This document shows positions 12,303 through 60,905 of a DNA stretch of 64,000 nt, piece after piece; the stretch's first letter is position 1; each line of letters opens with the position of its first letter. The stretch comes from Candidatus Kapaibacterium sp. (GTDB taxonomy: Bacteria; Bacteroidota; Ignavibacteria; Kapaibacteriales; UBA961), in the NCBI GenBank assembly GCA_046328995.1, contig JAXLVN010000004.1, positions 274,599-338,598 of the forward strand. The letters are read 5' to 3'. A program made the position numbers and the translations under genes. The notes beneath the pieces were generated by a model. The model searched no databases. It was not told where the DNA came from and saw only the letters and a list, made by a program, of their open reading frames with translations.

Positions 12303-12366
12303 GATTTACGCAGAGAACGATGAGATTGTTCTCTGCGCCCTTTGCGCCTTTGCGTTAAAATACGCA
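12303..12366. repeat. Palindromic REP/attC-like repeat, copy C (reverse orientation)
   Basis: CTCTGCGCCCTTTGCGCCTTTGCGTTAAAA is the reverse complement of the TTTTAACGCAAAGGCGCAAAGGGCGCAGAG core seen at 46025 and 47468. It starts 22 nt after the trpS stop. Confidence 0.8.
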
Positions 12367-12409
12367 TCAAAAGGATGAGTTAAGTAGAGAATCTAACAAA
12401 AAAACGAAA

Positions 12410-12583
12410 ATGAAAAATAAGAAAGAATATGTGGATATCGAAGATATACGTCCTTCAGAACCTCTTACTCCAATAGAAAAACAAGCTATAAGCGACTTTA
12501 TTAAACAACGAAAACTAGAAATCTCGACAAAAGGAGTTTCGTCTGAGCAAAATAGAGAAAAGCGGCAAAAAGTACCGGCATAG
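12410..12583 (+). CDS. Hypothetical small protein (57 aa) in an AT-rich insert bracketed by repeat copies C and D
   Basis: I translated ATG 12410 to TAG 12583 as MKNKKEYVDIEDIRPSEPLTPIEKQAISDFIKQRKLEISTKGVSSEQNREKRQKVPA. It is below the ORF-track length cutoff. Confidence 0.3.
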   Translation: MKNKKEYVDIEDIRPSEPLTPIEKQAISDFIKQRKLEISTKGVSSEQNREKRQKVPA

Positions 12584-12637
12584 ATGGGTGTAATGGTTCT
12601 ATCATGTGCCGTGTGTTTTTAACTCTTAAAAATAAAG

Positions 12638-12705
12638 GGTTACGCAAAGTGCGCTGAGAATATCCTCTGCGTCCTCTGCGCCTTTGCGTTAAAATAAACG
12701 CAAAT
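12638..12705. repeat. Palindromic REP/attC-like repeat, copy D
   Basis: TTACGCAAAGTGCGCTGAGAATATCC...TCTGCGCCTTTGCGTTAAAA. It abuts the stop codon of the minus-strand gene 12707..14653. Confidence 0.8.
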
Positions 12706-12706
12706 A

Positions 12707-14653
12707 TTACCACCCCACATCCACCTGGAAAATAAACTTCTGTTCGGCATTTCCCTCAATCTCACTTGTGCCGCTCCCGAGCGACGTCACGCTGTTCTTG
12801 GCGGTGACGGTGTAATTGGCTGCAAGCGACAACTGCGGTATCGGCTTGTAATTCAACAAAATAAACGACCTTGTGCCATTGCCGTAGAGAGCAGGATTCC
12901 CCAGCACGCCGGGCACGGACGGTTCGAATGTCCACCGCGCCGACGCATAGCTGTCGGTCGAAAAATACGCAATGCGTGCGCCTATTTTCCAGCGTTCGCT
13001 CCGCCACCAAATCTCGGCAAAACTCACAACACCCACTTCCCGCGGCTGCACACGTTCAAAGTCACAATACACCGCTTCCACGCGAAAGCGGGTGCGGATT
13101 TCCGGCGTTGCCTCATGCTGCACTTCCGTTCGAAGTGAAGTGACTGTGCGCTGATAGACGCTTCGCATGCCATCCTCGCCCGTGAAGACGTCCGTTTTAT
13201 TTTCCGTGTGGAAGCGCATCACCGCAAGTGTGGGACGGGTGATTTTCCACCGGCATTCGGCTAAAATATCGGCGCCGCGCGTGGGGGAGTACATGCCGAA
13301 TCGCGGCGTAAGAGATTGATACACATCAGCATAACCCATGAGTTCAAGCCCGGGCACGCTGCGCCAGAAGAGTCCTGCATAGAACCCTGCTTCATTGCTC
13401 GGCGAGGGGAATTCTCCGAAATTATTCCCGAAGGGCGAACGGAATTCCGGGGAAAAGTAGCGCACGCCGAGGGCTGATTTTACGTTTTTACCGGTGAATT
13501 CCATGCTGAATTTCACGCCATTATTCCCAAGTGCGTCGCGGCTGAATTCGCCAAGAAGAAGAGAATTGACACCCGTATATGCCCCATAAAGCGAGGATAA
13601 GGTGCCCGACTGCCCGGAAAAGACACTCGTCGAACTGCTCACAATCGGCCTCTCGTAGCGCAGGGAAAGTGCAGAGGCGCCCAGCGTCCATGCGGAGGAA
13701 ATAGTCCATTCTGCAATGAATCCTATGGCTTGTTCGCCCAGCGCGTTTCGTTTTGCAATCTCGGAAGGCGTTCGGAATAAACCACTTATATCGAACGAAG
13801 TAGCAATATTTTGTGCGGAATCAATCGACGCAGACCTACGAATTGATGAATAAAATCCTGTGATTTCCAGCAAAGAATTTTCTGAGAGTGATATCTTGCC
13901 TTCCACAGCCGCCCCTCGAAAGAATCGATATTCAATCGACGAGCGATACGGACTACTGCCGCTGCCCTGCTGAATGATCGGCGCAATGACTTCACTCCCT
14001 TTTTTTGCACCAAATCCTTGAGAAATAATACTTCCGAGACCGCTTTCGGCGGTGAAGTCACCGAGTACGACGCGGAAGGCATTATCCTTATACTCGGCAA
14101 AACCGCTCATAAAGTCGGTAAGTGAGCGTTCGCCTTGAGCTTTGGAGGCGGTGACACCTGCCGAGAAATTACCAATCCCGCCGGTGAGACGCTGATAGAG
14201 TGCGAGTGGCGAACCAAGAAAGGCGCTGTCCTGAATGCCTTTGATTTCTTGAAATCGGTCGTATACGCGCGTGCGGTAGCCGAGCCATGCCGGCTGTGTA
14301 TCGTGTGGTTTTTGGAGAACGACACATTTCTCGAAGAGGGCGAACTGTGCCTCCGAGAGCCGCAGCGAGTCGGCGAGGGCACGTTTGGTAATCTGCGGAT
14401 ACTGTTTACGTAATCGGACTAAGCGTCGTGCGTTAGCAATGGAGAGGCCCGGCAGGAAGAGCAATGTCCGGGGCTGTGCTGTCGGCAGTACGATCGGATG
14501 CTCGGAATAATACTCGATCGTGTTGAGCAGCGGCGCATCGTCGCTGTCGCGGCTAACGACTTCGAGAGCGGATTCTTCGGGAGAAGTGGCAGATGTGTCC
14601 TGAGCGGCAGCGGGAGCAAGGCACAGTAAAAGCAAGGCGAGGAATTTCTTCAT
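12707..14653 (-). CDS. Outer-membrane beta-barrel protein with an N-terminal ComEA-like helix-hairpin-helix DNA-binding motif
   Basis: The signal peptide is MKKFLALLLLCLAPAAAQ. An HhH pair (LLFLPGLSIANARRLVRLRKQYPQITKRAL...LRLSEAQFALF) resembles ComEA. The remaining ~500 aa show an amphipathic beta-strand pattern. Confidence 0.55.
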   Translation of the reverse strand: MKKFLALLLLCLAPAAAQDTSATSPEESALEVVSRDSDDAPLLNTIEYYSEHPIVLPTAQPRTLLFLPGLSIANARRLVRLRKQYPQITKRALADSLRLSEAQFALFEKCVVLQKPHDTQPAWLGYRTRVYDRFQEIKGIQDSAFLGSPLALYQRLTGGIGNFSAGVTASKAQGERSLTDFMSGFAEYKDNAFRVVLGDFTAESGLGSIISQGFGAKKGSEVIAPIIQQGSGSSPYRSSIEYRFFRGAAVEGKISLSENSLLEITGFYSSIRRSASIDSAQNIATSFDISGLFRTPSEIAKRNALGEQAIGFIAEWTISSAWTLGASALSLRYERPIVSSSTSVFSGQSGTLSSLYGAYTGVNSLLLGEFSRDALGNNGVKFSMEFTGKNVKSALGVRYFSPEFRSPFGNNFGEFPSPSNEAGFYAGLFWRSVPGLELMGYADVYQSLTPRFGMYSPTRGADILAECRWKITRPTLAVMRFHTENKTDVFTGEDGMRSVYQRTVTSLRTEVQHEATPEIRTRFRVEAVYCDFERVQPREVGVVSFAEIWWRSERWKIGARIAYFSTDSYASARWTFEPSVPGVLGNPALYGNGTRSFILLNYKPIPQLSLAANYTVTAKNSVTSLGSGTSEIEGNAEQKFIFQVDVGW

Positions 14654-14720
14654 CGGTGTATGAAAAAGTGGTAGAAATGTGAAAAATGGCGTGCAAGACG
14701 GAAAAGAACGTGGTGCACAT

Positions 14721-14757
14721 AAAAAAGGTGAAATTTCCCATTACGGGAAATTTCACC
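14721..14757 (-). terminator. Rho-independent terminator for the lipoprotein gene 14830..15375
   Basis: A perfect 13 bp stem (GGTGAAATTTCCC / GGGAAATTTCACC) with a 5 nt loop is followed on the minus strand by TTTTTT. Confidence 0.7.
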
Positions 14758-14829
14758 TTCGATTGTCAAAGTACGTTTTTGAGGTGGTCGTTCAAAAACG
14801 ATGCGGATACTGTCTCTAAAGAACGATGA

Positions 14830-15375
14830 TTATTTCGTAAATCCTTCTTGAAGCATTTCTTCGACGGTTCTGCTCCCTGCTTCGGTATCCGGCTGGGTCG
14901 GCAAATTACCGTATAATTTTTCGTTCAATGCCTGCATGACATAGACAGTCGATTGGTTCTTAGTTACGAAAATACTCGGCAGACCGCGGAGAGAGAAGCG
15001 GCTCATCAGTGGGTGCTTGACTTGTGAGGAGCGCATTGAGTAGATGATAATCATCGAGTCCGGAACACCGGCTGACTGGAGTACTTTAATAGTCTGAGGG
15101 AAGGTCTTCTTGGTACCATTACATCCGCAGGAAGGATTCACAAAGAGATAAACCTGCTGATGATTGGCCTGATAAGCATCGGAAATTTCTTTTACTTTCG
15201 CCGCTGATGGCGTGTAGGTGTTTACTTCTGCATCGAACCATGCATAGCCGGTCGAGGTCCGGAGATCTGATACAGTCATAAGGGTAGCTTCCGGCTCCGG
15301 CTCAACGGGCGAGCAGGCTGAGAGACCGAGAGCGATGGAGCAGATAAGTGCGAGGAGGGAGCGGTAAAATTTCAT
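14830..15375 (-). CDS. Lipoprotein of unknown function, possibly with a thioredoxin-like fold
   Basis: The start is taken at the internal Met (MKFYRSLLALICSIALGLSAC, lipobox LSAC). A Cys-containing NPSCGCNG motif is present. Confidence 0.5.
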   Translation of the reverse strand: MKFYRSLLALICSIALGLSACSPVEPEPEATLMTVSDLRTSTGYAWFDAEVNTYTPSAAKVKEISDAYQANHQQVYLFVNPSCGCNGTKKTFPQTIKVLQSAGVPDSMIIIYSMRSSQVKHPLMSRFSLRGLPSIFVTKNQSTVYVMQALNEKLYGNLPTQPDTEAGSRTVEEMLQEGFTK

Positions 15376-15477
15376 TGTGTATCCTATCGAAGAATAAAAC
15401 AGCATTAATGTTCTGCGAAATTAGCGTTTTTTTGGTGATAATCAAATCACTTATTATCATGAAACGTTGAAATTTTA

Positions 15478-16350: not shown

Positions 16351-16637
16351 GGCTTGGTATATTCTAAGAAATAGCTCAAACTCTCACATAAATCTTGCAA
16401 CAATTCAGTCTCGAATTCGGGTACGACGCCCGGGGAATGCTCGATCAGCACACGCATCATCTCTTCACGGAATTTTACATCGTGTGTAAATGACGGAGAA
16501 AGATAGGTTTGGAGAAAATCATACAATGAATTTTCCTGCGCCAGCTCCTCGTAAAATGTCCGCGGAGCGAGCCCCTGTATCGCCGCTTTGGTGAGCGTCG
16601 AAAGCCGCTGTTCGTTCTCTTCCTCGTGTGACTTCAT
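16329..16637 (-). CDS. Hypothetical small protein (102 aa)
   Basis: Its ORF overlaps the downstream coiled-coil gene by 22 nt, suggesting co-transcription. Confidence 0.35.
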   Translation of the reverse strand: MKSHEEENEQRLSTLTKAAIQGLAPRTFYEELAQENSLYDFLQTYLSPSFTHDVKFREEMMRVLIEHSPGVVPEFETELLQDLCESLSYFLEYTKPWRIPNQ

Positions 16638-16788
16638 AGTTTCAATTATTCATTGATATCACCTGCCATTGAAGGCAGTCGCCTCAGTATCGGACTATTT
16701 ACAATAATACTTGATTTTTTCTATGGAGATATACTATATTTGAATTAATCCCCATGTTTCGAATCATTCATCGTCCTAACCTCTCCCT

Positions 16789-19032: not shown

Positions 19033-19100
19033 AATAACGTATTATATTAATTAGATTATTACTTAGGAATACACTATACTCATCTTTACGGATTACATAT

Positions 19101-31252: not shown

Positions 31253-32410
31253 ATGGACTACTCAGAACTCATCTACTTATACATCGACGGCGAGGCAAGT
31301 GAGGCGGAGCGAACGCTGCTCTTCTCGGCGCTAGCGACCGACGCTGCACTTCAGGCGGAATTTAACGACGCCTTCAGGATGAATTCTGCCGTTCAGAAAG
31401 AAATCGAAACGACCGTTCCCCCACCCGAACTCACGAGCCAAGTGTTTGAAAAAGCAGGATTTGTAACGCCGGACGAACCATCCCGTAAAAAAGCAGGTTG
31501 GCTTGCCTTGCTGCTGCTGCTCATGAATTCCCGGGGAATTCCACTCCTCACGGCAGTCGGCGGCGCGCTGATTATGTACGGAGTGATGCGGTGGAATTCA
31601 GGCGCAGAACCAAGCGCGACAATTGCTGCAAATGACGCTTCACCGCAATCAATTTCAGCTCCACACAAGTTTCGTGATACGACATCTGCTACACCTTCAA
31701 TTCCCAATGAATCGATCGCGAGCCAACGAATAATTCCAACGAGCAGCAGTAGAATCATTCCTTCCGAACGTACACACATACCTTCCGAACATCTTAATAG
31801 TCAAGAAAATACGAAGAAGATTGTGCCGGATCTTATACCGGTTCGGCATACAATGAGCGCGTTGCATTCGTATCGCTCATCACCATTCGGTCGGGATGAT
31901 TGGCGCCGCCTGACAGCGCCGCAGAATACACTTTCGTTGCCTGCTGATGATTTCGCCGATCTTGTGATGCAGGTCAGCGGTCACAGCGGTTTGCAAGATC
32001 GTGGTGATGCATCACCTGCAATGCTCAATAATATGAGTATCAGCATTGCCTCGCACCTTTCGCCGAATCATCTTCTTGGCGGACAACTTGGGCAGGAGTC
32101 GTTCCCGATTTTCAGTTCAGACGGAACGTTTGAGAGGAATGTGAATGTGATGTGGATTGGCGCCTTATATCGCTACGAAATGGATGGTATCCAAGCACTT
32201 GGCGGTATTCAACCGTTTGCTCAGGTCGTGGCGGCCGGCACACGGTCGGGTCCGCTCGGCAAGGGCACACTCGGCGTGATGTGGCAACCCGAGAGTCGTA
32301 TTATTCTCTCCTTCGGACTCGAAGCCACGGCGCTTGTCTATCAATTCCAAAGCGCATCCTACGGCACGCAAAAGCTGGGCATGAATTATGGCATTTCTGT
32401 CAAATTTTAA
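31253..32410 (+). CDS. Anti-sigma factor for the upstream ECF sigma, with a large extracytoplasmic domain
   Basis: There is an N-terminal anti-sigma domain (MDYSELIYLYIDGEASEAERTLLFSAL), a TM segment (WLALLLLLM) and a Ser/Pro-rich region. Confidence 0.65.
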   Translation: MDYSELIYLYIDGEASEAERTLLFSALATDAALQAEFNDAFRMNSAVQKEIETTVPPPELTSQVFEKAGFVTPDEPSRKKAGWLALLLLLMNSRGIPLLTAVGGALIMYGVMRWNSGAEPSATIAANDASPQSISAPHKFRDTTSATPSIPNESIASQRIIPTSSSRIIPSERTHIPSEHLNSQENTKKIVPDLIPVRHTMSALHSYRSSPFGRDDWRRLTAPQNTLSLPADDFADLVMQVSGHSGLQDRGDASPAMLNNMSISIASHLSPNHLLGGQLGQESFPIFSSDGTFERNVNVMWIGALYRYEMDGIQALGGIQPFAQVVAAGTRSGPLGKGTLGVMWQPESRIILSFGLEATALVYQFQSASYGTQKLGMNYGISVKF

Positions 32411-32430
32411 ATTTTCAAGGGGATTTTCCA

Positions 32431-33009
32431 ATGAGTAAAGCATTTATCATCATGCTGTTATGCGGAGTATCTACGCTCACGGCGCAGGAGGAACAGGCAA
32501 CTTCTCCTTTTCATCATCAGATTGGTGTGGCAGGTTCGTTGATTTCCGGTATGGGAATCAGCTATCAGTATATATTTTCAGATGATTACCGGGTGAAGTG
32601 TACGGGGTTGTATTATACTGGAACAGATAATAATTCAAATTCAGATGATAGGACAGATACGGAGACGCAAGCGGGGCTGGAAGTGCAGAAGAGTCTTTTA
32701 AAGGGAAAAAGTACCCGTGTTTTTGCTTTTGTGGGAGTGGGAATATTGTCATCGACTACACTCAGCAATATCGATATTGACACTCGTGCGAGCAATACTC
32801 AGAACTATTATCACAGTGGCGCCGGTGTTGGAATTGAACTAGTAGTAGCCGGGCGCATAGCTTTTAATATTGAAGTAGGGGCGTTGTATTCTTTAAGAGT
32901 TACGCGAGGAGAATCCGTTGCTCCAAAATATAGTATATACGATTCACATTACTACCGTGAAGCGGGTTTCGGCATCGGCGGTGGCCTTGGTATCGGCTAT
33001 CAATTCTAA
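32431..33009 (+). CDS. Small outer-membrane beta-barrel protein, tandem paralogue 1
   Basis: The start is at MSKAFIIMLLCGVSTLTAQ. It has the conserved FHHQIGVAGS..SG.GISYQ motif and a C-terminal GIGYQF. Confidence 0.65.
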   Translation: MSKAFIIMLLCGVSTLTAQEEQATSPFHHQIGVAGSLISGMGISYQYIFSDDYRVKCTGLYYTGTDNNSNSDDRTDTETQAGLEVQKSLLKGKSTRVFAFVGVGILSSTTLSNIDIDTRASNTQNYYHSGAGVGIELVVAGRIAFNIEVGALYSLRVTRGESVAPKYSIYDSHYYREAGFGIGGGLGIGYQF

Positions 33010-33040
33010 ATATTTCTTCGTACTTTATCAAAGGATATGT

Positions 33041-33616
33041 ATGCTAAAAACTATCATTATCTTCTTGCTGTGTGGTATAGTAACGCTCACGGCGCAGGAG
33101 CAGGCCACGCAGGAATTTCATCATCAGATTGGTGTTGCGGGCTCGAGTATGTCGGGCTATGGTATCAGCTACCAGGCGATTTTTTCGGATAATTATCGGG
33201 TGAAGCTTACGGGCTTTTGTATGAGTGCATCGGCAAGTACGACGTATGATTCGGACGACTTCTATCTTTCGGCCGGGATTGAGGGACAGAAAACTCTCTA
33301 CAAGACTGAAGCCACACGGCTTTATGGACTGCTGGGTGTGGGATTCTACAAGCAGGGCAGTTATGATTATCCTCCAAATTATGGGTTTAGCAGTTATAGT
33401 CACACGGAAAATACGTATTCGGGAGGGGCAGGATTTGGGGTAGAGCTCATTGCTGCCGGGAGGATTTCCTTTAATTTCGACGTAGGACTTGCGTATTCAT
33501 TCAGCGAGCGGAAGTATTATACAAATGATGGCACTCCGTCACCGATAACGCCAATATTTCGGAGTGAGGTGGGTGTGGGTATTGCCGGTGGCATTGGATT
33601 CGGCTATCGATTTTAA
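33041..33616 (+). CDS. Small outer-membrane beta-barrel protein, tandem paralogue 2
   Basis: The start is at MLKTIIIFLLCGIVTLTAQ. It shares the FHHQIGVAGSSMSGYGISYQ motif and ends GFGYRF. Confidence 0.65.
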   Translation: MLKTIIIFLLCGIVTLTAQEQATQEFHHQIGVAGSSMSGYGISYQAIFSDNYRVKLTGFCMSASASTTYDSDDFYLSAGIEGQKTLYKTEATRLYGLLGVGFYKQGSYDYPPNYGFSSYSHTENTYSGGAGFGVELIAAGRISFNFDVGLAYSFSERKYYTNDGTPSPITPIFRSEVGVGIAGGIGFGYRF

Positions 33617-33649
33617 TTTCTTGGTTCACAACTATAGTATCACATTCTA

Positions 33650-34225
33650 TTGTATAGCGTTATGAAAACTACACTCTCATTGCTTCTTGCCTGTTTGTTT
33701 ACCTTCGGAATGCTTTCTGCCGCGCCGGTTGACTCTACGACGATTATGCATCATTCGATCGGGATATCGGGTTCGTCTATCACGGGTTTTGGCGTGGCGT
33801 ATCGCTACAATTTTGATAATCAATGGTATGCCAAAACCGTTGGCGCGCTTTATTATACCGAAGACAGCGACAGTCGAAGCGATTTTTACAGTTTTATAGG
33901 ACTTGAACTACAGCGGAATTTCATCCAAACCCCGAGCACGCGGCTTTATGGTTTTGCGGGGACGAGCTATTGGTACAACATGTCGGAGTCCTCCTACACT
34001 TCTGCCGGGGTAACTACTGTGTACACGTCAAAAGAGCATACGATGAATATCGGTGCGGGGGTAGGATTTGAGCTGTCAATTTGGGAGCATTTCGGAGTGA
34101 ATTTCGACTTTGGATTTCAATATGCCGGCATACAGCATCCAAGCACCACGACGACTGAGAGTAGTTTGAGGTCATCTTCGCGTTCCGGCATGGGCGGTGG
34201 AATCGGCTTCGGGTATCAATTCTAA
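33650..34225 (+). CDS. Small outer-membrane beta-barrel protein, tandem paralogue 3
   Basis: It has a signal peptide, the MHHSIGISGSSITGFGVAYRY motif and ends GFGYQF. Confidence 0.6.
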   Translation: MYSVMKTTLSLLLACLFTFGMLSAAPVDSTTIMHHSIGISGSSITGFGVAYRYNFDNQWYAKTVGALYYTEDSDSRSDFYSFIGLELQRNFIQTPSTRLYGFAGTSYWYNMSESSYTSAGVTTVYTSKEHTMNIGAGVGFELSIWEHFGVNFDFGFQYAGIQHPSTTTTESSLRSSSRSGMGGGIGFGYQF

Positions 34226-34334
34226 GCATTTCCCCGCCACGCAAATACATTGCCCAAAAAGCCGCTTGTACCCCCAAAGAGCGGCTTTTTTCGTAAATTG
34301 CACCCCATTATACCCACTTATCAAGGAAAAACTC

Positions 34335-34544
34335 ATGGCTAAAAATCCTATTGCGGCTAAAGTTCAGAAGGCAACTATGATCCTCGGCGTCGCTAATTTA
34401 CTGGCGGCATTCGCATTTCTCTTCGGCTATTTTATGTCGAAAGAATGGCTCTTCCTCGTCGCCTCCGGCGCAATGTTCGTCGCATTCGGCGGCATTATCG
34501 TGCTGGCAATCAAGATGAAAAAGAAACTCGCTGACCTCGAATAA
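34335..34544 (+). CDS. Small two-TM membrane protein (69 aa)
   Basis: I took the start at MAKNPIAAKVQK, with two hydrophobic helices. It lies 35 nt upstream of the DUF4349-like gene. Confidence 0.4.
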   Translation: MAKNPIAAKVQKATMILGVANLLAAFAFLFGYFMSKEWLFLVASGAMFVAFGGIIVLAIKMKKKLADLE

Positions 34545-34578
34545 TGATGTTCGTTTTCGCCTACTATTTCTCCTGCTT

Positions 34579-35550
34579 ATGAAATCTTTACTGCTTTATC
34601 GTATAGCCGCACTAGCGCTTGTCGTGGTTGTATTGTCTGGGTGTTGGAATAAATCGGGGAATTCAGAAACAGTGCCACAGACGAAGATGAAACTTGAAAA
34701 TCTACCCCCCGCTGAGCAACAGAGGAGTGGTTTGACAGATAATTTTCTGAATTCTCAAATTGCAAACAGTAGTACAGGTAATGGAACAGCACTTGATGTC
34801 GCTGCGAGCACTTCTACTGAACATAACACCGGCTCGAACTCTGCTGCAACACCAACGAAAAAAGAATCGAAAATCATCAAAAATGCGACTATCCGCATTC
34901 GAGTGAAGGACTTTCAGGCGGCAGGTTCGCAGATTGAGGAGATTATCAAGCGACAGGGCGGGTATTTTAGTTCGCAAACCGAGTCTCACACGAGCGATTC
35001 CCGCGAAAATCACGCAGTGATTCGTGTGGGGAATGAAAAATTCGATGCACTGGTCAAAGAACTCGTAAGCATCGCCGAACGTGTTGATTCTAAAAATACT
35101 TCCATCGATGATGTTACCGGTCAATTCGTCGATATTCAGGCGCGGTTGAAGGTAAAAAAAGAAACCGAGAGTAGGTTCTATGAAATCCTCAAGCAAGCCC
35201 GCACCGTCAGCGATATCCTCGAAGTGCAGGGGAAAATCAATGAAATCCGCGAAGAAATCGATGCAGCCGAGGGGAGATTACAAGTACTGAGCGATCAGGT
35301 GACGTTCAGCACCGTGAATCTTGAATACTACGAACGCTTAACGCAAGCTACCACGGCATCAGAAGATAGCTTCGGCGAGAATCTCGCTCGGGGATTCTCT
35401 AATGGTTGGCATGGATTGCTCTCGCTTATCGTATTTGCCGTCACGGTATGGCCATTTTGGATTATTTGCGCGGTATTTCTCTTTATCATTATCAAAAGCG
35501 CTAAACGTATGCGCCGGCAGACGAAAGGTGATACGACTACGAAGTCTTGA
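34579..35550 (+). CDS. DUF4349-like lipoprotein with a coiled-coil and a C-terminal TM anchor
   Basis: There is a lipobox (VVVLSGCW), a Ser/Thr-rich linker, a coiled-coil (RLKVKKETESRFYEILKQAR...AEGRLQVLSDQ) and a C-terminal TM (LLSLIVFAVTVWPFWIICAVFLFIII). Confidence 0.5.
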   Translation: MKSLLLYRIAALALVVVVLSGCWNKSGNSETVPQTKMKLENLPPAEQQRSGLTDNFLNSQIANSSTGNGTALDVAASTSTEHNTGSNSAATPTKKESKIIKNATIRIRVKDFQAAGSQIEEIIKRQGGYFSSQTESHTSDSRENHAVIRVGNEKFDALVKELVSIAERVDSKNTSIDDVTGQFVDIQARLKVKKETESRFYEILKQARTVSDILEVQGKINEIREEIDAAEGRLQVLSDQVTFSTVNLEYYERLTQATTASEDSFGENLARGFSNGWHGLLSLIVFAVTVWPFWIICAVFLFIIIKSAKRMRRQTKGDTTTKS

Positions 35551-41331: not shown

Positions 41332-41622
41332 ATGCACACACTCTTACGGCAATCACTCTTTTGGGATTCTAATCTTGAGTCGCTAGACCTCCAAAAGCAT
41401 AAGCGGAAAATTATCGTTCGCGTGCTTGAGCGCGGAACGCTTCAGGATTGGCAGGCAATTAAAGAGCTCTATGGCAAGGATACTATACGCGATGAAGTAC
41501 TGCAAGCCCGTTCGCTCGATAAATACGTGCTCGCGTTTTGTTCGGCATATTTTGATGTACCCAAGGAGGACTTTCGATGCTATACACTGATTCAGTACCA
41601 AAAGAAGCACTGGAATTATTAA
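41332..41622 (+). CDS. Hypothetical protein, putative cognate antitoxin or regulator of the AbiEii-like module
   Basis: It is 96 aa and directly upstream of, and possibly overlapping, the nucleotidyltransferase gene. It has no recognisable motif beyond a possible helical HTH-like stretch. Confidence 0.35.
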   Translation: MHTLLRQSLFWDSNLESLDLQKHKRKIIVRVLERGTLQDWQAIKELYGKDTIRDEVLQARSLDKYVLAFCSAYFDVPKEDFRCYTLIQYQKKHWNY

Positions 41623-42200
41623 TTCGTCTTATGAAACTTGATGCATTGCAACCATTTGCACTCGCTGGTGGAACTGCTCTCGCTTTGCGTTTCGGGCATC
41701 GAGTGTCGTATGATATTGATTTATTCACGTCTGTGGGATTTGATGCGCAAGCACTTGCTGAGAGCATTCAGCGGAGCGAACCTATTAGTCAATTCCGTGT
41801 TCAACCCAATACTATCAATGCACAGGTAGCAGGTGTAAAGCTGGATTGCCTCGCACATCGGTACAATCAACTTGGGGCAATCGAAGTAATTGATGGTATT
41901 CGCCTCTATTCTCTTCCGGATTGTGTAGCAATGAAGCTATCAGCAGTTGGAGGTCGTGGCGCGCGGAAAGATTTCTATGATATTGCTGCTCTTATGCAGG
42001 TAATGACACTACCCGAAATGGTTGAATGCTTTGAAAAGAAATACCCCAATGCCGATAGCTTACATACTATTCTAGCCCTAACGTATTTTGATGATGCTAA
42101 TCTTGAAGAAGAGGTTACACTTAGCGCCACATCACCTGCTCAACTACAATCATGGCACGCAGTCCAATCGTTACTTGTACGTGAAGTGAAGAAACTATGA
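41577..42200 (+). CDS. AbiEii/AbiGii-family nucleotidyltransferase toxin (DUF1814)
   Basis: Nucleotidyltransferase motifs are present (FALAGGTALALRFGHRVSYDIDLF). An alternative start at 41631 would avoid the overlap with the upstream ORF. Confidence 0.65.
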   Translation: MLYTDSVPKEALELLIRLMKLDALQPFALAGGTALALRFGHRVSYDIDLFTSVGFDAQALAESIQRSEPISQFRVQPNTINAQVAGVKLDCLAHRYNQLGAIEVIDGIRLYSLPDCVAMKLSAVGGRGARKDFYDIAALMQVMTLPEMVECFEKKYPNADSLHTILALTYFDDANLEEEVTLSATSPAQLQSWHAVQSLLVREVKKL

Positions 42201-46024: not shown

Positions 46025-46108
46025 GATTTTTAACGCAAAGCCGCAAAGGGCGCAGAGAATATCCTTTGCGCACTTTGCGTAACCCTTTGCGAGTTTTGCG
46101 GTTAAATT
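46025..46108. repeat. Palindromic REP/attC-like repeat, copy A (forward)
   Basis: TTTTTAACGCAAAGCCGCAAAGGGCGCAGAGAATATCCTTTGCGCACTTTGCGTAACCCTTTGCGAGTTTTGCGGTTAAAT. It starts 10 nt after the stop of the vWA-WD40 gene. Confidence 0.85.
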
Positions 46109-46191
46109 TGGGTTGGGTTGTGTTGGGGGATGATTCTATTCTTGTACCAACCGCGATAATGAGAACACACGTTTAAAAACCAAGCTGAACT

Positions 46192-46827
46192 ATGAAATTC
46201 AAGCCTCTTACATACATATTGATGGGAGTATTCTCGATTATACAATTTGCCGGTTGCTCTCATAGATTAACTAAGGATAAGAACCTTCTGCATACTTTAC
46301 AGACATATAGTAGTTCCAATGATTTTACTAATTTGAATAACAAAATCAGTAGTGATTTGAAAGAGGATACAACTCATTATTTTCTTATTTCAATCTCACG
46401 ATACGAATCCACATGCTATCCCCCTCCTTGGCTAAATAGGTTTACAACTCAGTATCTTTTTGTTTATATTGAAGAGCCAGTTATATACCCTGATGGCGAA
46501 CATCATTATGATTTTTATTGGAAAGTCTATAAGTTTACAAATTATTCTGACAAAAAGTATTTAGGAAAAGTGAGTGGAGGAGCTTACAATTTAATAGTGA
46601 ACAAACTGTACGATATACTCAACAATAGACCTGAAGCAAATATCAGGGACAAACTTGGATATGGTTTAGAATTTTCAACATGGATCAATTACAACGGGAG
46701 AAAGATTACAAATAATATAATTAACGGTGGAGACATGGAGAATACGTATGTCAATTTATTTACTGTAGTTAAATCAGCAGTTTATGAATTAGAACTTGAG
46801 CAGTACTATCAAGGGCTTGAGAAGTAA
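46192..46827 (+). CDS. Hypothetical lipoprotein encoded in a low-GC islet
   Basis: The signal peptide with lipobox is MKFKPLTYILMGVFSIIQFAGCS. The gene is AT-rich and Asn/Tyr/Lys-rich, and sits between repeat copies A and B. Confidence 0.5.
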   Translation: MKFKPLTYILMGVFSIIQFAGCSHRLTKDKNLLHTLQTYSSSNDFTNLNNKISSDLKEDTTHYFLISISRYESTCYPPPWLNRFTTQYLFVYIEEPVIYPDGEHHYDFYWKVYKFTNYSDKKYLGKVSGGAYNLIVNKLYDILNNRPEANIRDKLGYGLEFSTWINYNGRKITNNIINGGDMENTYVNLFTVVKSAVYELELEQYYQGLEK

Positions 46828-47467
46828 ACTCTTCAATACTACACCACAATGTGATGATTTTCGATGCTATATTCCCAATACATCCATGAATCCGATTGAA
46901 AAGACATTTGTCAAGATCGTACTTGCACTGTGCTCGATTCATGTACTTTGGTTTTTGGTGTACGGCATGTTTATCGTTACGTGTTTGCTTGTCAATGGGC
47001 ATTTGCCGACATCGGATGTTTTTGAACCATTATGGTTGCGGGAGTTTTTGCATAGTATCACCGGGAGTATTTACATTGAAGTTGTTTAGTATTTTCAACG
47101 GAGAGCGAAACATTGCTTTACCTCCATAGTTGAGGGCGGCTAAGACGCCTGTTTTTCATTTGGAAATACAGCATACCGGTCATAGTCAGCATGTTTTCTA
47201 CCCCAAAAATCGGCTCTAAAAATAATCCTAAACAACTTCATCGTTATAATGCTCTGTTTTTTCAATTTCTTTATTAGCATCACAGCACTTTTGGGTATGA
47301 TAGTCAAAACGAAGAACAAGCGGATTCTGATAGGCACGGTTTTGTTTGTCTTGGTAAATGTGGGGTTCATTTATTTTGTTACTTCGGACCCGGGGTCAGT
47401 GCTTTGGTGCGGTGAATAATCAATATGGTAGCATTCAACGTGAAATTTACATATTGATGGTACAAAA

Positions 47468-47550
47468 AGATTTTTAACGCAAAGGCGCAAAGGGCGCAGA
47501 GAATCACTTTGCGAACTTTGCGTAAACCATAGCGAAATTTGCGGTTAATT
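47468..47550. repeat. Palindromic REP/attC-like repeat, copy B (forward, direct with respect to copy A)
   Basis: It is ~88% identical to copy A over ~80 bp. It ends with TTTGCGGTTAATT and lies 48 nt upstream of pfk. Confidence 0.85.
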
Positions 47551-48732: not shown

Positions 48733-48830
48733 TAAACCTCAGTAGGAGAGCAGAAACCTTAGGTGTTTATTAAACCTCAGTAGGAGAGCAGAAAACCTTA
48801 GGTATTCATTAAACCTCAGTAGCGCAAGGA
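48733..48830. repeat. Tandem repeat, ~38-39 bp unit in 2.5 copies
   Basis: TAAACCTCAGTAGGAGAGCAGAAA(A)CCTTAGGT + 6 nt variable occurs at 48733 and 48771. A partial third unit follows at 48810. Confidence 0.8.
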
Positions 48831-55406: not shown

Positions 55407-55459
55407 ATGGCATAAGAAACATGGTGTGTGTCGTGTATTATTTTAATCTCTTTCCCCAC

Positions 55460-58018
55460 CTACACCCTCCGCAGCATCTCCCCAATAATACTTAATAACT
55501 TCTCGGAAGTATAGGGCTTATGGAGAAAAACAACCCTGTCCTGCGTGACGATATCGCTGTCCTGCTTTAAGCCGCTGACGGCGATGATTTTTACCTGCGG
55601 ATTCATCTTTTGTATCGCACGGATGGTCGCCGTGCCGTCCATATAGGGCATCATCATATCGGTGACGACGAGGGCGATCGAGTCGCCGTAATGAGCATAG
55701 GTGGCGAGTGCTTCGGTGCCGTCAACCGCGGTGAGAACCTTGTACCCATGCGCTTCTAAGGTTACTTTCGTTATTTCGCGTATGCTTTCCTCATCTTCGA
55801 CTATTAATATACACTCACCTTTGCTGTGGGGAAGTGCCACGCTCACATCGAGTTCGGCCTGCCGACTGCCGTCATCGCTCACCGGCAGGTACAGCTTGAA
55901 CGTCGTGCCCTTGCCAAGCTCGCTATAGACATTGATAAATCCCTTGTGACTCTTGATAATCGTGAGCACGGTGGAGAGTCCGAGACCGGTTCCTTTGTTG
56001 ATTTCTTTCGTCGTGAAAAACGGTTCGAATATCCGCTCGAGAACCACCGGCGGGATTCCCATGCCTTGGTCGGTGACGGTGATCACGATATAGGTGCCGA
56101 GTTTTGCATCGAGGTGCATGCGCACGTACTGTTCGTCGAGTTCGATCGTTTCCGCTTCGATTTCAATTTTTCCGCCATTCGGCATTGCATCGCGCGCATT
56201 GACACAGAGATTCATCAGCACCTGATGTATTTGCGTCGAATCGGCGGAAATCGTCGGTAAATTCGTGGTGTATTTTGTATGGAAGGTAATCGACTTCGGG
56301 AATGTCTGCGTGATGATTTTTCCTATTTCTTCAATTAAATGACGTACTTGGACGATGGTAAATTCCCCTTCGACACCGCGAGCAAAGGAGAGAACCTGCC
56401 GGATAAGTGCCGACCCGCGCTTGGTCGATGTCTCAAGCATCTGCAGCATCTTTTGGCTTTGAGCATCGGTAAGCTTGGTACTCAAATAGCTCACCGACAG
56501 TAAAATCGGCGATAGCACATTATTGAGGTCATGGGCAATTCCGCTGGCAAGCGTACCGATACTTTCCATGCGTTGCGCGCGAAGGAATTGCTTCTCGAGT
56601 TGTTTTTTCTCCGTACTGTCTCGTGATACGACAATTACCCTGATAACGGCGCCCTCTTCATCTCTGATGACACTGCCCTGTGACTCGATAAAGCGTATGC
56701 TGCCGTCGGGAAGAACAAAACGGTACTCCGCCCGCTGTCCGATTCCCGTGCGCACCGTGTCGTGAAAGAGTGCGCGGATGCGGTCGCGGTCTTCGGGATG
56801 AATTTCCTGAAATGAATCGGTGCCGTAGAGTGATTCCGGGTTGCCGAGGAGGGAGCGATAGGAGGGACTATTATACATGCGTTTGCCTTCGAGGTCGAGC
56901 ACTGCGATCATATCGGCTATGTTTTCTGAGATCATACGGAATTGCTCATGACTCTCCCGTATCGCTTCATCGGCGACCTTGCGGGCGGTGATATCCTGGA
57001 ATGCACCCATAAGCCGAATGCATTTTCCATCCCGAAATTCACCTTTGCCGAGCGAACGTACCCAAATTTGCTTGCCGTTTGCAGTAATAAACGGCACTTC
57101 AATGTCCCATGGCCTGCCTTCTTCCATGCCGAGTTTCACGGCTTCGGTGATTAATGGCCGCGCTGAAGGTGCATAAAAATGAATCGCTTCCTCGATAGTG
57201 GGTATTTGTCCCTGCGGCAGACCGTAGATGGTGAAGGTCTGTTCGGTCCAGAACATATCCATCGTCTCGACATCGATTTCCCAACCGCCGATATTGGCTA
57301 ATTTCCCAATTTCCGTGAGCATTGATTCACTCTTCCGCAACTGTTCTTCTGCTTTTTTACGTTCCGAAATATCGACCGACAGGATAAACACGCCCTCGGG
57401 TACCGGCAGAAACTTCAGGTCAAAGCATCCTTTGCGTCCGTCGGGGAAGTGAAACTCATGTTCGATGATCTGAGGGATGCGTTCCTGCATACAGAGCCAA
57501 AGTTTTTCAAACATTTCCGTCGATTCAATCCCCGGATACATCTCCATCATTGTATGGCCGATTAGATCTTCCTTCTGCCGGCGGGCATGATGTGATGCCG
57601 TGTCATTGAGGTAGATATAGGTCCAGTCGTATCCGACAATCTGACATCCTTCCAGCATCTCATCGAGTCCACGCAGATGTATCGATTCACTTGCTTGATT
57701 GGACGAAATGCTCTGTCGTAATACACCAACTTCTTGTTCTAATTGATGAATAACGGACAAAAGGGAAGTGCTCTCCTCGCTCTGCCTGCTGCTTGCCTCG
57801 CCCGCGCGCTCGTGCGTGATAGCCAGTAAGCGCTTTCGGCAGAGCCAAAGTGCACCTACCAGCAACATGTTCACGGCAAGGGAGAGTATGGGGAAGAACG
57901 TGCCCGCATCGGAAGAAACCACGGTCAACCGATGGTAGGTGTCCCAGATGGCATAGCACAGCACTCCCGATACTATCCAAGAACGAAGGTGTAGTTTTGT
58001 GCGGAATGAGGGTTTCAT
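55460..58018 (-). CDS. Hybrid sensor histidine kinase/response regulator with cytoplasmic PAS domains
   Basis: There are two N-terminal TM helices with no periplasmic loop and several PAS-like blocks. HisKA (LASGIAHDLNNVLSPI), HATPase (GTGLGLSTV) and a C-terminal receiver (ILIVEDEESIREI...VVTDMMMPYMDG) are all present. Confidence 0.85.
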   Translation of the reverse strand: MKPSFRTKLHLRSWIVSGVLCYAIWDTYHRLTVVSSDAGTFFPILSLAVNMLLVGALWLCRKRLLAITHERAGEASSRQSEESTSLLSVIHQLEQEVGVLRQSISSNQASESIHLRGLDEMLEGCQIVGYDWTYIYLNDTASHHARRQKEDLIGHTMMEMYPGIESTEMFEKLWLCMQERIPQIIEHEFHFPDGRKGCFDLKFLPVPEGVFILSVDISERKKAEEQLRKSESMLTEIGKLANIGGWEIDVETMDMFWTEQTFTIYGLPQGQIPTIEEAIHFYAPSARPLITEAVKLGMEEGRPWDIEVPFITANGKQIWVRSLGKGEFRDGKCIRLMGAFQDITARKVADEAIRESHEQFRMISENIADMIAVLDLEGKRMYNSPSYRSLLGNPESLYGTDSFQEIHPEDRDRIRALFHDTVRTGIGQRAEYRFVLPDGSIRFIESQGSVIRDEEGAVIRVIVVSRDSTEKKQLEKQFLRAQRMESIGTLASGIAHDLNNVLSPILLSVSYLSTKLTDAQSQKMLQMLETSTKRGSALIRQVLSFARGVEGEFTIVQVRHLIEEIGKIITQTFPKSITFHTKYTTNLPTISADSTQIHQVLMNLCVNARDAMPNGGKIEIEAETIELDEQYVRMHLDAKLGTYIVITVTDQGMGIPPVVLERIFEPFFTTKEINKGTGLGLSTVLTIIKSHKGFINVYSELGKGTTFKLYLPVSDDGSRQAELDVSVALPHSKGECILIVEDEESIREITKVTLEAHGYKVLTAVDGTEALATYAHYGDSIALVVTDMMMPYMDGTATIRAIQKMNPQVKIIAVSGLKQDSDIVTQDRVVFLHKPYTSEKLLSIIGEMLRRV

Positions 58019-58420
58019 GGTATTGATGGGAATAGAGTATAGAAATTAGGTACGGTTTTCTCGTAATTGTGGATATTATCAGCAATCCGGAAGGTATAAA
58101 TGGTCTCTTGTCAGGTCGGGCACATCGATTCGGTCTCTCTACCTATAGATGAAGTACCGAGCAGTTCTTTTGTCATGGATAGAGAGTAGAATACCGGAAA
58201 GCAAAAACCGGACAGAAGTTCTGTTCGGTAGAATTGATGCAGCCAATCGACACGTATGGCTACCGAACCACGGTAGCCGGAAATGATGGTCGCATGACAG
58301 GGCTATACTGCGTACGTGCCGGTATTTATCTGATTGTTATGCTGTTGAGCAAGCTCAGAGATGCCTCCTGCTTGTGCCGCCGATGCCTTCGCGCTGATTT
58401 TTGTCACCACTAAAAGCCGC

Positions 58421-58452
58421 GCGCAATGTGGTAAGCGCGCGGCTTCATCATC
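58421..58452 (-). terminator. GC-rich hairpin, candidate terminator for small gene 58518..58715
   Basis: A perfect 11 bp stem (AAGCCGCGCGC / GCGCGCGGCTT) is followed on the minus strand by TTTTAG. Confidence 0.45.
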
Positions 58453-58517
58453 ATGGGAAGGGGGACATTCTCTTCTGCCGTCGAGGGCAGCTATGGTGAG
58501 CTCGATGAACATGTTGG

Positions 58518-58715
58518 TCAGTTCGTGAGCTCATGAGCAAAAATCGCCGCTACTTCATCGGCGAGGATGAAGTCAACGAGCTTGCTTTTTTGCTCTTTGC
58601 CGATAAATTCATAAATCATACGCTTGGTCTTGGCTTGCTCTTTGAGCTGTACTTCATCGGCTACAATCCGGAAATTTCTGCCGCTGATGGTGTGGATGTT
58701 GAAGGTCGTTTGCAT
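58518..58715 (-). CDS. Hypothetical small protein (65 aa)
   Basis: The ORF has a downstream hairpin. An overlapping plus-strand ORF (58533..58760) is a less likely alternative. Confidence 0.3.
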   Translation of the reverse strand: MQTTFNIHTISGRNFRIVADEVQLKEQAKTKRMIYEFIGKEQKSKLVDFILADEVAAIFAHELTN

Positions 58716-58797
58716 AGTTGTTCTCCTGATAAATTGATAAATAGTAAAAAATGGAAATGAATAATGTGAATGTATAAATAGTACTACGTGCTGTATG

Positions 58798-59007
58798 TTA
58801 TTGGACTACAGTTCGGTCTTTTATGTCAATCAGCGATGCCTGCTCTCCATAGGTCGATTGCACTTGCTGATTAAGTACTTGATCCTGCTGAACGGTAGAA
58901 ATTGCACTTTGCTGTTCGGCAAGAAGTGCATTGATTTGAGCGATGTCATACGAGGTGCCCGACGAGATTGAACCTAAATAGATGAGGATTGAAAGTAAGA
59001 AATTCAT
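58798..59007 (-). CDS. Small secreted peptide (69 aa precursor, ~48 aa mature, Gln/Ser-rich)
   Basis: The start is taken at MNFLLSILIYLGSISSG (signal peptide). The mature part is DIAQINALLAEQQSAISTVQQDQVLNQQVQSTYGEQ... Confidence 0.35.
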   Translation of the reverse strand: MNFLLSILIYLGSISSGTSYDIAQINALLAEQQSAISTVQQDQVLNQQVQSTYGEQASLIDIKDRTVVQ

Positions 59008-59110
59008 GATAATTACCCTAGAATAAATTGTACATTTGCTGTAGCAAAATCGCTGCGTTAATTTCAAGTGCAATTTATAGGGGCGGGCTCGCCATTCCAT
59101 GACAAAGTAG

Positions 59111-59329
59111 GGTCGTTTTGTTACATCGATTTTTTGCCTATTTTTGGGGTAAAATAAGGGGTGCGAAAAGTGACTTTCTAGGTTTTATGCGGTCTACAGG
59201 GGATTTGCAATTTGTTGAAAATCGCGAAAAAGGGGTCGTTTTGTTACATTTTGTAAAATTGTCGTTTCCAATCTTTTTTGCCGGAATTCCGGTATTTCGG
59301 GTGGAAACTATAGAAAAGTGGGTCGTTTC
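59111..59329 (+). promoter_or_regulatory. Three direct repeats of GGGTCGTTT(TGTTACAT) in the upstream region of gene 59330..60853
   Basis: GGGTCGTTTTGTTACATCGATTTTTTG occurs at 59111, GGGGTCGTTTTGTTACATTTTG at 59232, and GTGGGTCGTTTCATG at 59318 overlapping the start codon. Confidence 0.45.
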
Positions 59330-60853
59330 ATGCTTATCGATCAGCTCAAAGCACTCGTACAGATAGTACAGAGAACCGGGAGCGAATTACCTGAGGACTT
59401 CTCAGTGCCGCCCGGCAAAAAAGAGTCGCTTGTTCTGCAATTTTACCGTTTGCTGCTCAGCGATGATACTCCCGAGGATGAAAGTGAGCTAGCAGCAATA
59501 CTCCTCGGTGATAAAAACAGCAATAGTCACTACCGAGTTCTCAAAAACCGCATTAAAAAGCAGCTCACGGCGGCGGTCCTGAATCTGAGCGTGAATACAG
59601 AATCATTTTCCGATGTGTTTAGAGCATGGTATGGCGGTAGCCGCGAACTCATTGTAGCAGAAGTGCTTACCAAGCTCGGAAAGCATACAGCCGGGATTGA
59701 AATTATCCAGGAAATTTACAAGCAAGCGACGTATTATCATCTTACTGACCTGCAAATCCGCGCCCTTGACCACCTGCGCTCGCATTACGCACTCACCGGC
59801 GAGAAAAAAAAATATCACGATACGAAAGCACTGCTCAGTAGCGCTCTTGCAGTACGTCAGGCAGAAATCGATGCGGTCAGTCATTACGAAGATGTGACGA
59901 TTCTCTACGCCAACAAACACTCCGAGCGTCCCGAAAACTTACCCTTTGCCCGCGAAAAATTACGTCTGATACGTATATTATTTGATCAGTATGACAGCTA
60001 CAAAATCAAAGATCGCTATTGGGCGCTCGCCTCGCTTATCGGGCAAATTGATCTTAATTACGACACGGTCATGGAGTCAACGGAGGAAGCAATTAGCTAT
60101 CTGAAGGAGCATCCTCACCTCGTAGGTAAGAATTTGCTCGGAATCTATATGTCCGAAAAAATACTCATCTGTTTCTCCCACCGCAAGTACGACGAAGCGC
60201 GCGCCGCAATTGAAGAGTGTAAGCCGGTAACTACTCCCAATACCGGTACATGGCTCAGTCTTAAAATGACGGAAACGCTTCTCAATCTTCACACTTGCCG
60301 CGAGCGTGAGGCATGGGAAATTGTGCGTCAGGTCAAAAGCGCCCTCAAAGAATCTTCGGGCGGAATGGAGCGCTACGGCATTGAATGGAAAATTCTCGAA
60401 GGGTATTGTTACTACGCCTGCATGACCGCTACGCCGCCGCCAAGTGAGGACGACATGCCGTTCTTACCCGACCCCGTCCGTGTCTTCGCCGGCGGTTTCC
60501 TCGAATTCTTCGATGATAAAGAAGGCGCGAATCTCTCGATGCTGCTCTGCCATATTCTATTAATATCGCTCTCGCCGGACTCCAAAACAGACTTCTCGAA
60601 TAAAATTGCCCTCCTCGATCGGTATCGCCTGCGGAATTTAAAGAATCGACAATCGCAGCGCGGCGCATACTTTATCGAACTCCTGAGAGCAATGGTACGC
60701 GCCGATTACAACCGTGCCACGACCATTCGCCTCGCCAAGCCCATTCTCGAAAAAATGCAGGCAATCACTATCTGCGAGAATTATGAAATACTTCCGTTTG
60801 AAAAGACATGGCACGCGCTCGTGGAGCGGATGACGGTGAAGGTAAAAGGATAA
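59330..60853 (+). CDS. Hypothetical all-alpha protein (about 507 aa)
   Basis: It is helix-rich with no recognisable catalytic motif. The start could be ATG 59330 or GTG 59318. Confidence 0.5.
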   Translation: MLIDQLKALVQIVQRTGSELPEDFSVPPGKKESLVLQFYRLLLSDDTPEDESELAAILLGDKNSNSHYRVLKNRIKKQLTAAVLNLSVNTESFSDVFRAWYGGSRELIVAEVLTKLGKHTAGIEIIQEIYKQATYYHLTDLQIRALDHLRSHYALTGEKKKYHDTKALLSSALAVRQAEIDAVSHYEDVTILYANKHSERPENLPFAREKLRLIRILFDQYDSYKIKDRYWALASLIGQIDLNYDTVMESTEEAISYLKEHPHLVGKNLLGIYMSEKILICFSHRKYDEARAAIEECKPVTTPNTGTWLSLKMTETLLNLHTCREREAWEIVRQVKSALKESSGGMERYGIEWKILEGYCYYACMTATPPPSEDDMPFLPDPVRVFAGGFLEFFDDKEGANLSMLLCHILLISLSPDSKTDFSNKIALLDRYRLRNLKNRQSQRGAYFIELLRAMVRADYNRATTIRLAKPILEKMQAITICENYEILPFEKTWHALVERMTVKVKG

Positions 60854-60865
60854 CATCGCCATCTC

Positions 60866-60905
60866 CGCGACCTTTGCGAAACCTTTGCGTGCTTTGCGGT
60901 TAATC
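60866..60905. repeat. Palindromic REP/attC-like repeat, partial copy E (right half)
   Basis: CGCGACCTTTGCGAAACCTTTGCGTGCTTTGCGGTTAAT lies 13 nt after the stop of gene 59330..60853. Confidence 0.7.

Follow-up and report, generated by a model that had tools for sequence, protein, structure and literature searches.

What are the short palindromic repeats that recur beside stop codons in a 64,000-nucleotide stretch of a Candidatus Kapaibacterium sp. genome (contig JAXLVN010000004.1, positions 274,599 to 338,598; hereafter the window), and what part do they have in the fate of the DNA between them? An earlier reading of this stretch, the original prediction, had described a dispersed family of five such copies and had offered three identities for them: terminators or mRNA stabilisers of the repetitive extragenic palindrome (REP) kind, integron attC-like sites, or the terminal repeats of a non-autonomous mobile element. 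The family itself is real, since a degenerate 28-mer (TTAACGCAAAGNCGCARAGGNCGCAGAG) had four exact matches in the window versus none in 100 shuffles, and a hidden Markov model (HMM) of the repeat arm, built solely from copies in other phyla, hit the five copies, here named A to E, and nothing further in the 64 kb (A to D at E 3e-13 to 4e-12, E at 0.018). Our tentative reading, to which we assign a probability of about 0.45, is that the copies belong to a nuclease-linked, self-propagating repeat family and act as recombination junctions for gene cassettes. The observed part of this reading consists of membership of the family, association with the nuclease, position at cassette borders and the pattern of turnover.

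The window comes from a metagenome-assembled genome (MAG) of Candidatus Kapaibacterium sp., in which its trpS, lipoprotein and deformylase products are MFN8360991.1, MFN8361024.1 and MFN8361035.1, respectively, while its pfk product clusters at >=90% identity with MFN8361025.1 from the same contig of the MAG. The close relative used for comparison, GCA_016720145.1 (Ignavibacteria bacterium Lyne_18-Q3-R50-59_BAT3C.229), encodes proteins that fall in the same 90% clusters as those of the window. A JGI metagenome contig served as the third genome in the comparison of the interval between the WD40 gene and pfk.

Layout of the five copies

The window contains four full copies (A to D) and one partial copy (E) of an oriented palindromic repeat of about 80 bases. 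Their positions, together with that of a solitary unit next to copy B, are as follows.

12282-12361, minus strand: copy A (arm HMM E 1.8e-12; fold z -5.3)
12637-12695, minus strand, as A: copy B (arm HMM E 8e-13; outer end GCGTTAAAAT)
12696-12705, no strand assigned: solitary unit AAACGCAAAT, between B and the stop codon (12707-12709) of an outer membrane protein (OMP) gene
46027-46126, plus strand: copy C (arm HMM E 4.2e-12; full-length hairpin of -21.7 kcal/mol, z -4.5)
47466-47550, plus strand: copy D (arm HMM E 3.2e-13; 47 nt upstream of the pfk start)
60863-60904, plus strand: copy E (3' part only, with four reverse units and GGTTAAT; arm HMM E 0.018)

An arm consists of TTAAC followed by CGCARAG units, three to four in tandem. 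The second arm stands in inverse orientation to the first, and the 7-nt units (forward CGCA[A/G]AG, reverse CT[T/C]TGCG) are spaced at 8-9 nt. In this lineage, a full element has, in its own orientation, AAAGATTTTTAAC and three forward units before a short loop, and after this loop one or two reverse units, TAA, two reverse units and GGTTAAAT, the oriented composite element being 80-115 nt long and ending in GGTTAAAT. Copy A, on the minus strand, has TTTTAAC and three forward units on one side of its loop; on the other side stand one reverse unit, TAA and a tail that has decayed, with GGTTAGAT abutting the trpS stop codon. Copy C is made up of TTTTTAAC and three forward units, two pairs of reverse units with TAA between the pairs, GGTTAAAT and a G/T-rich tail that extends about 20 nt beyond GGTTAAAT, a tail also observed on two copies of the third genome. 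In unit maps of the plus strand, A and B have the unit order forward-reverse-reverse-reverse, C has three forward and three reverse units, D three and two, and E reverse units only. The arms of D and A are 100% identical over 32 nt. The solitary unit AAACGCAAAT is, by its sequence, the remnant of a further element, which in the relative stands on the far side of an extra cassette that is described below.

The original prediction had placed the copies correctly, but several of its details changed. Copy A begins 1 nt after the trpS stop, as indicated by its ortholog, which is intact in the relative (in the window the left part is decayed), and C runs about 20 nt further than had been proposed. 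Copy B, reported as forward, is reverse like A, so that it is a direct repeat relative to A and inverted relative to C and D, and the identity of A and B, given as approximately 88%, is 83% over 63 nt. The proximity of four of the five copies to stop codons was confirmed, at distances of 1-12 nt: A lies 1 nt from the stop of trpS, B 11 nt before that of the OMP gene on the opposite strand, and two copies follow a stop codon, C that of the 1154-aa vWA/WD40 gene at about 12 nt and E that of an orphan 507-aa gene at 9 nt. Hairpin formation on either strand held for A to D, which fold better than shuffles on both strands (z -3.0 to -5.3), and failed for E, of which only the 3' part is present and which showed no fold (z = 0.13).

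Copy E was also considered as the 3' arm of an element carrying a gene in its loop, and this was ruled out, as unit and arm-HMM scans of the window revealed no forward array upstream of the 507-aa gene. Upstream of the same gene, the sequence GGGTCGTTTTGTTACAT is present in two full copies (59110-59126 and 59233-59249) and as a partial copy (59320-59329) directly before the ATG, and it may be a regulatory site of this gene.

A cross-phylum family linked to a nuclease gene

Among GTDB species representatives, exact matches to the 28-nt arm were found at 53 loci, which represent more than 10 phyla, among them Chloroflexota (with the isolate Chloroflexus islandicus), Planctomycetota, Verrucomicrobiota, Acidobacteriota, Ignavibacteria, Bacteroidota, Neomarinimicrobiota, Hydrogenedentota, and Gamma- and Deltaproteobacteria. 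The majority of these loci are single forward-reverse palindromes with loops of 5-150 nt in intergenic DNA, and some are tandem arrays, those of Chloroflexus and Gemmataceae being free of cargo. A Pfam scan of the 76 open reading frames (ORFs) flanking the elements in the 53 loci returned ordinary housekeeping families; among the 25 families listed, PF13366 appeared twice, and neither a RAYT nor a transposase was present. As a provisional definition of the family we used TTAAC plus a tandem run of at least three CGCARAG units, spaced 8-9 nt apart, and an inverted array opposite, an arrangement observed in A to D. We read A to E as gene-less members of this family of 'unit-array palindromes', which is conserved in sequence and shared across phyla. 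A description of these repeats was not found in the literature when it was searched with sequence strings and family names; Rfam families and tRNAs were absent from the window at gathering thresholds, and Rfam gave no match around A to D at E <= 1. A phage or plasmid vehicle was rejected, given that the 28-mer was found in only 1 of 2.9 million viral contigs and that copy C had no BLAST match in 72,556 plasmids.

At two of the 53 loci, a gene of 126-135 aa belonging to the 'GxxExxY' family (PF13366/TIGR04256) was enclosed between the arms. An alignment of these two proteins was used as the query of a metagenome scan, from which 80 loci were kept. In the 69 GxxExxY loci with complete flanks, at least two forward units lay within 130 nt upstream of the gene in 50, at least two reverse units lay downstream in 51, and both were present in 42; the share of metagenomic GxxExxY genes (PF13366, PD-(D/E)XK) with a unit array on a given side was therefore approximately 72-74%, as compared with 18/309 and 13/309 in control windows displaced by 400-1000 nt. 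Inverted arms could be aligned at 54 of 77 loci (median 34 nt), and the majority of the genes sit within one palindrome. The units were of the CGCARAG type in 29 loci and of the CACAGAG type in 34, with mixed types in only one, and the type of unit tracked the phylogeny of the nuclease (nearest-neighbour agreement of 0.857 versus 0.494 permuted, with 0/2000 permutations reaching the observed value). The CACAGAG units define a sister family, whose termini are GCCAC/GTGGC, TGC/GCA and similar, not AAC/GTT. The same arrangement of a nuclease gene within arms was found in isolates of Bacteroidota, Alphaproteobacteria and Gemmatimonadota (Bernardetia, Sphingomonas and Gemmatirosa among them); in Sphingomonas parapaucimobilis (L159), the GxxExxY gene and its arms lie between fabD and fabG in the fatty-acid synthesis cluster, and S. 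paeninsulae (L160) has the empty site.

With at least 7,952 clusters at E <= 1e-10, the GxxExxY/PF13366 family is very large; it is listed without a known function, and multiple horizontal transfers have been noted (PMC3424549). Across the aligned homologues, residues D68, E78 and K80 do not vary, and in an AF2 model (pLDDT 95) the nearest solved folds are nucleases of the Cas4 and lambda-exonuclease type, at a TM of only about 0.5. PADLOC defence-system models matched neither the nuclease nor the cargo proteins. At eight loci (L079, L084, L086, L093, L095, L108, L112 and L113), a hairpin lies between the forward array and the ATG of the GxxExxY gene, with a stem that varies yet stays paired and a conserved loop, GGGAGA or TGAGAGG; this hairpin may be a cis-regulatory RNA.

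The MAG of the window itself encodes a GxxExxY protein, MFN8361194.1, which is present in the same samples as the window proteins. Its gene is flanked by perfect 27-nt arms (TTTTAACGCAAAAGGCGCAAGAGGCGC) and, together with them (L161 2411-2931), lies between a 930-aa N-terminal part of metH and a separate 300-aa activation-domain ORF, so that methionine synthase is split at a domain boundary. The relative shows the same split of metH (L036 1628-2404), where the gap has grown to approximately 775 nt and holds five elements. No remnants of a nuclease gene were detected in the loops of gene-less copies or in the window.

Cassettes between the elements and turnover of the copies

Two pairs of co-oriented copies in the window enclose a cassette each.

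12362-12636, no strand assigned: A-B cassette, low GC, with a 57-aa ORF (12410-12583, plus strand); conserved in the relative
46127-47465, plus strand: C-D cassette, GC 0.31-0.41 versus 0.52-0.57 in the flanks, with the gene of a 211-aa lipoprotein (46192-46827) and small ORFs

The spacing of sites is 334 nt from A to B and 1444 nt from C to D, and at least two co-oriented sites within 4 kb thus separate cassettes, as in an attC array. Comparison with close relatives, which the original prediction had proposed, revealed that both the presence of copies and the content of the cassettes vary. Between the WD40 gene and pfk, the two flanking genes and the junction elements are kept in all three genomes, while the DNA between the elements is unrelated and between-genome BLAST similarity inside the interval is confined to the elements. 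The cargo of this interval is as follows.

Window: 211-aa lipoprotein, GC 0.31-0.41
Relative: 273-aa secreted protein, GC 0.34
Third genome (JGI contig): three co-oriented elements separating 84-aa and 160-aa ORFs, GC 0.39

Between the OMP gene and trpS, copy A, the 57-aa ORF and copy B are orthologous in the relative, which has in addition an extra cassette of 1.15 kb that starts exactly at the outer end of B (GCGTTAAAAT) and contains a DUF3024 gene, an antitoxin gene and a truncated toxin gene, the latter two read from the sequence. The cargo ORFs at this locus are antisense to the array, and the elements within any one array are all co-oriented. The relative lacks copy E and has a different repeat at the orthologous site. 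The lipoprotein cassette was not found in another genomic context. Taken together, the elements are co-oriented separators of small, low-GC, strain-variable cassettes between conserved housekeeping genes.

At least eight metagenome contigs of the window's species terminate exactly within the arm, as would be expected of a repeated k-mer; the repeats break metagenome assemblies exactly at this point. One locus carries a strain variant at the position of copy D.

Locus L007: a palindrome other than D, joined to the same right-hand sequence ...TTTGCGGTTAATT

Individual copies were found to change faster than their surroundings. Between the window and the relative, the orthologous identity of A was 0.76 and that of B 0.79, as compared with 0.90-0.91 for adjacent non-coding spacers and 0.93-0.97 for coding DNA, while the identity of arms was 0.88-1.00 among paralogues within the window versus 0.65-0.82 between orthologous pairs. 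Single copies are therefore not conserved in place, whereas the family consensus is kept within the genome and across phyla, which indicates concerted evolution or reseeding and not purifying selection on each site. In 34 simple elements, unit variants and spacers of the two arms agreed no better within elements (0.22-0.47) than between them (0.17-0.50), under a test that assumes an outer-anchored register. Arms of gene-bearing elements were slightly more complementary to their own partner (0.87) than to the arms of other elements (0.80-0.83). Selection on the arms at the RNA level was rejected, as sense-strand G.U-compatible mismatches between the arms around nuclease genes were not in excess (72 versus 90). 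It is the motif, repeated in inverted arrays, that has been conserved, and this speaks for sequence-specific recognition; the hairpin potential follows from the units standing in inverted arrays.

Other features were observed near these loci and elsewhere in the window. Just past pfk there is a 30-nt direct repeat in two copies (AAACCTTAGGTRTTYATTAAACCTCAGTAG, 48754-48822), and in the relative a pair of IS110-family transposase genes lies downstream of pfk (L172 7457-8753). Upstream of the vWA/WD40 gene there is an AbiEii/DUF6922 toxin-antitoxin pair (41332-42200), and upstream of trpS a gene with a Bro-N domain (10115-10969). The relative also carries another dispersed repeat (TTAGCTCCRTMGGWGCGACCTGTTTGT/ACAAACAGGTCGC; L172 4603-4720 and L176 4700-4850), one copy of which stands where the window has E. 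A second palindromic family (TGTCATTCTGA...GAAGAATCGA) forms inverted pairs at 31093-31130/31165-31203 and 35575-35612/35821-35858, which bracket a gene block (31253-35550) containing tandem repeats with a period of 607-610 nt, and at 63138-63233 the window further contains tandem copies of an 8-nt repeat, (AGTCTGTA)n, after which GTAAGTNNGTAAGTGGTAAGT occurs twice.

A proposed nuclease-driven exchange and its rivals

The proposed mechanism starts from the gene-bearing form of the family, which encloses the GxxExxY PD-(D/E)XK nuclease gene between its arms. The arms would be recognition sites of a trans-acting, sequence-specific factor, most probably this nuclease, with TTTTAACGCAAAGGCGCAAAGGGCGCAGAG as a candidate target of MFN8361194.1. 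Breaks at the arms would be repaired from other copies through gene conversion or homologous recombination, which would propagate and homogenise the element, and the DNA between two copies could thereby be inserted, lost or replaced, the outcome being an integron-like exchange of cassettes without an integron integrase. A wider claim, possible but in our view doubtful, is that unit-array palindromes and the GxxExxY nuclease constitute an integrase-free cassette exchange system conserved across more than 10 phyla, of which we found no description. In such a system, the repeated motifs, CGCARAG or CACAGAG, would be recognised by the nuclease, which would then break the palindrome; repair from other copies would spread the element, and the arm shared by distant phyla would offer portable homology for the capture, loss and swap of cassettes, even within fabD|fabG and metH.

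Several points weigh against a cassette exchange driven by the nuclease. Its role is deduced from co-occurrence only, the window has no GxxExxY gene and the MAG a single known one, target-site duplications were not seen, and the covariation test depends on the assumed register of the arms. Copies A to D are orthologous in two species and are therefore old and mostly immobile. The turnover of cassettes could be driven by ordinary RecA recombination or by an integrase encoded elsewhere, complete integrons being known in Ignavibacteriae (PMC9024848), and the GxxExxY gene could be merely the commonest cargo, or a parasite of the elements, instead of their agent.

An integrase encoded elsewhere is also what would be needed if the elements were true integron attC sites of the clustered (CALIN) or single (SALIN) type, recombined by an IntI from another part of the genome, an account that we consider quite unlikely. 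In behaviour the likeness is close. The elements are imperfect palindromes of about 80 nt directly 3' of ORFs, in co-oriented arrays that separate low-GC cassettes, one of them with a toxin-antitoxin pair, and these cassettes vary in number and content between close relatives. In their folds, (T/A)TTTAAC is paired with GTTAAAT, GTTAGAT or GTTAATT, stop codons overlap TTAAC in L036 and L171, and the integrons reported in Ignavibacteriae likewise speak for this account. The attC-like ends described in the original prediction match RYYYAAC...GTTRRRY fairly well, but the 5' end, TTTTAAC in A to D, does not begin with R, and five of the nine ends read fit GTTRRRY exactly (in the window, the 3' ends are GTTAAAT in C, GTTAGAT in A, GTTAATT in D, GTTAATC in E and GTTAAAA in B, with the 5' and 3' ends pairing in C). 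Membership of the attC class, in contrast, appears unlikely. In neither the 64-kb window nor the 8-kb loci L001-L075 did an IntI1 probe, validated at 799 bits against NF011946, find a tyrosine recombinase, be it an integron integrase, a phage integrase or Xer. Sites of the attC type conserve structure rather than sequence, whereas here 28 nt are identical across more than 10 phyla and the arms, built of tandem 8-9-nt units, show neither covariation nor compensatory change. Furthermore, the ends of the CACAGAG sister family are not AAC/GTT, most GxxExxY genes lie inside one palindrome, with the same arms as a single inverted pair, which is not the geometry of a cassette, the cargo ORFs between the OMP gene and trpS are antisense to the array, and the arrays are mini-arrays of one or two cassettes scattered among housekeeping genes.

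The elements might alternatively, though this seems unlikely, be selfish repeats of the kind of REPs or miniature inverted-repeat transposable elements (MITEs), tolerated after stop codons and without a cassette role, acquired genes landing in the same permissive sites so that the borders coincide by accident. The many solitary copies beside housekeeping genes in other phyla and the cargo-free tandem arrays of Chloroflexus and Gemmataceae agree with this, and concerted evolution, the rapid decay of single copies and a lineage-specific copy E all fit. Against this account, between-genome similarity stops at the ends of the elements at two independent loci in three genomes, cassette number changes by whole units of element plus cargo, and all elements within an array are co-oriented; neither a target-site duplication nor a transposase was found. 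A role as host-selected hairpins in the 3' untranslated region or in DNA (terminator, mRNA stabiliser or RNase III site), without mobility or recombination, appears improbable altogether. The distance of 1-12 nt from stop codons in four of five copies, the predicted stability of the hairpins on either strand and the precedent of rRNA intervening sequences, in which a loop ORF is flanked by a 28-bp stem cut by RNase III (PMC4990558), would be expected of such hairpins, whereas the elements are not consistently oriented with respect to the upstream gene, E is a half element that does not fold, orthologous copies evolve faster than neighbouring spacers, there is neither G.U asymmetry nor compensatory change, and structure alone would not call for a sequence that is identical across phyla. 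As for termination, no intrinsic terminator spanning the element was predicted around A to D and the T tract is absent, the single hit inside C being a 5-pair sub-stem between units.

The REP identity, like that of a terminator, is not supported. REPs are defined as palindromes of 20-40 nt that carry GTAG or CGTC as a tag at one end (PMC3733652); the tag is absent from the elements, whose ends are TTAAC/GTTAA, and no RAYT was found among the families listed beside them. The systems of REPs or REPINs with RAYT genes (REPtrons) and the TIRtrons (Di Nocera et al. 2013, PMC3733652) resemble the present family in being short extragenic palindromes near gene ends, with many gene-less copies for each gene-bearing one and an associated gene flanked by inverted repeats. 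They differ in that here there is no HUH/Y1 transposase but a many-copy PD-(D/E)XK nuclease of about 126 aa, and a consensus that is cross-phylum and not species-specific. Intervening sequences of 23S rRNA with an S23p ORF (Coxiella, Leptospira; PMC4990558) likewise have a small ORF in a hairpin loop and inverted repeats of about 28 bp, and are sporadic and horizontally acquired without destroying the host gene, to be compared with the split metH and the insertion at fabD|fabG; in contrast to our elements, their host site is rRNA, their ORF encodes a four-helix bundle, they are removed by RNase III at the RNA level, and no unit arrays have been reported.

Terminal repeats of a non-autonomous mobile element were, of the three identities first offered, the closest to the link with the GxxExxY nuclease, a link beyond the reach of the original prediction. 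MITEs and homing-endonuclease genes share with the family terminal inverted repeats, derivatives without a gene, and a palindromic site that has a nuclease gene at its centre, and differ from it in having a target-site duplication, a transposase, or an intron or intein context. Inverted arms are present in the elements, but the flanks are themselves inverted (TTTT...AAAA) with no direct duplication seen, the filled and empty sites of Sphingomonas being too diverged to show one. An autonomous MITE would encode a transposase, but the sole recurrent enclosed gene is that of the 126-aa GxxExxY nuclease, which is not a known transposase.

If the proposed exchange of cassettes by a nuclease-linked repeat family is true, it would give a testable role to GxxExxY/PF13366, a very large protein family of unknown function, and would account for an identical 28-nt non-coding sequence in Chloroflexus, planctomycetes, acidobacteria, Ignavibacteria and proteobacteria. 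Software that searches for integrons may also mistake the elements for attC sites, and CALIN counts in environmental genomes would then be too high. For the bacteria that carry them, they would provide a route of gene capture that resembles integrons yet is independent of their integrase.

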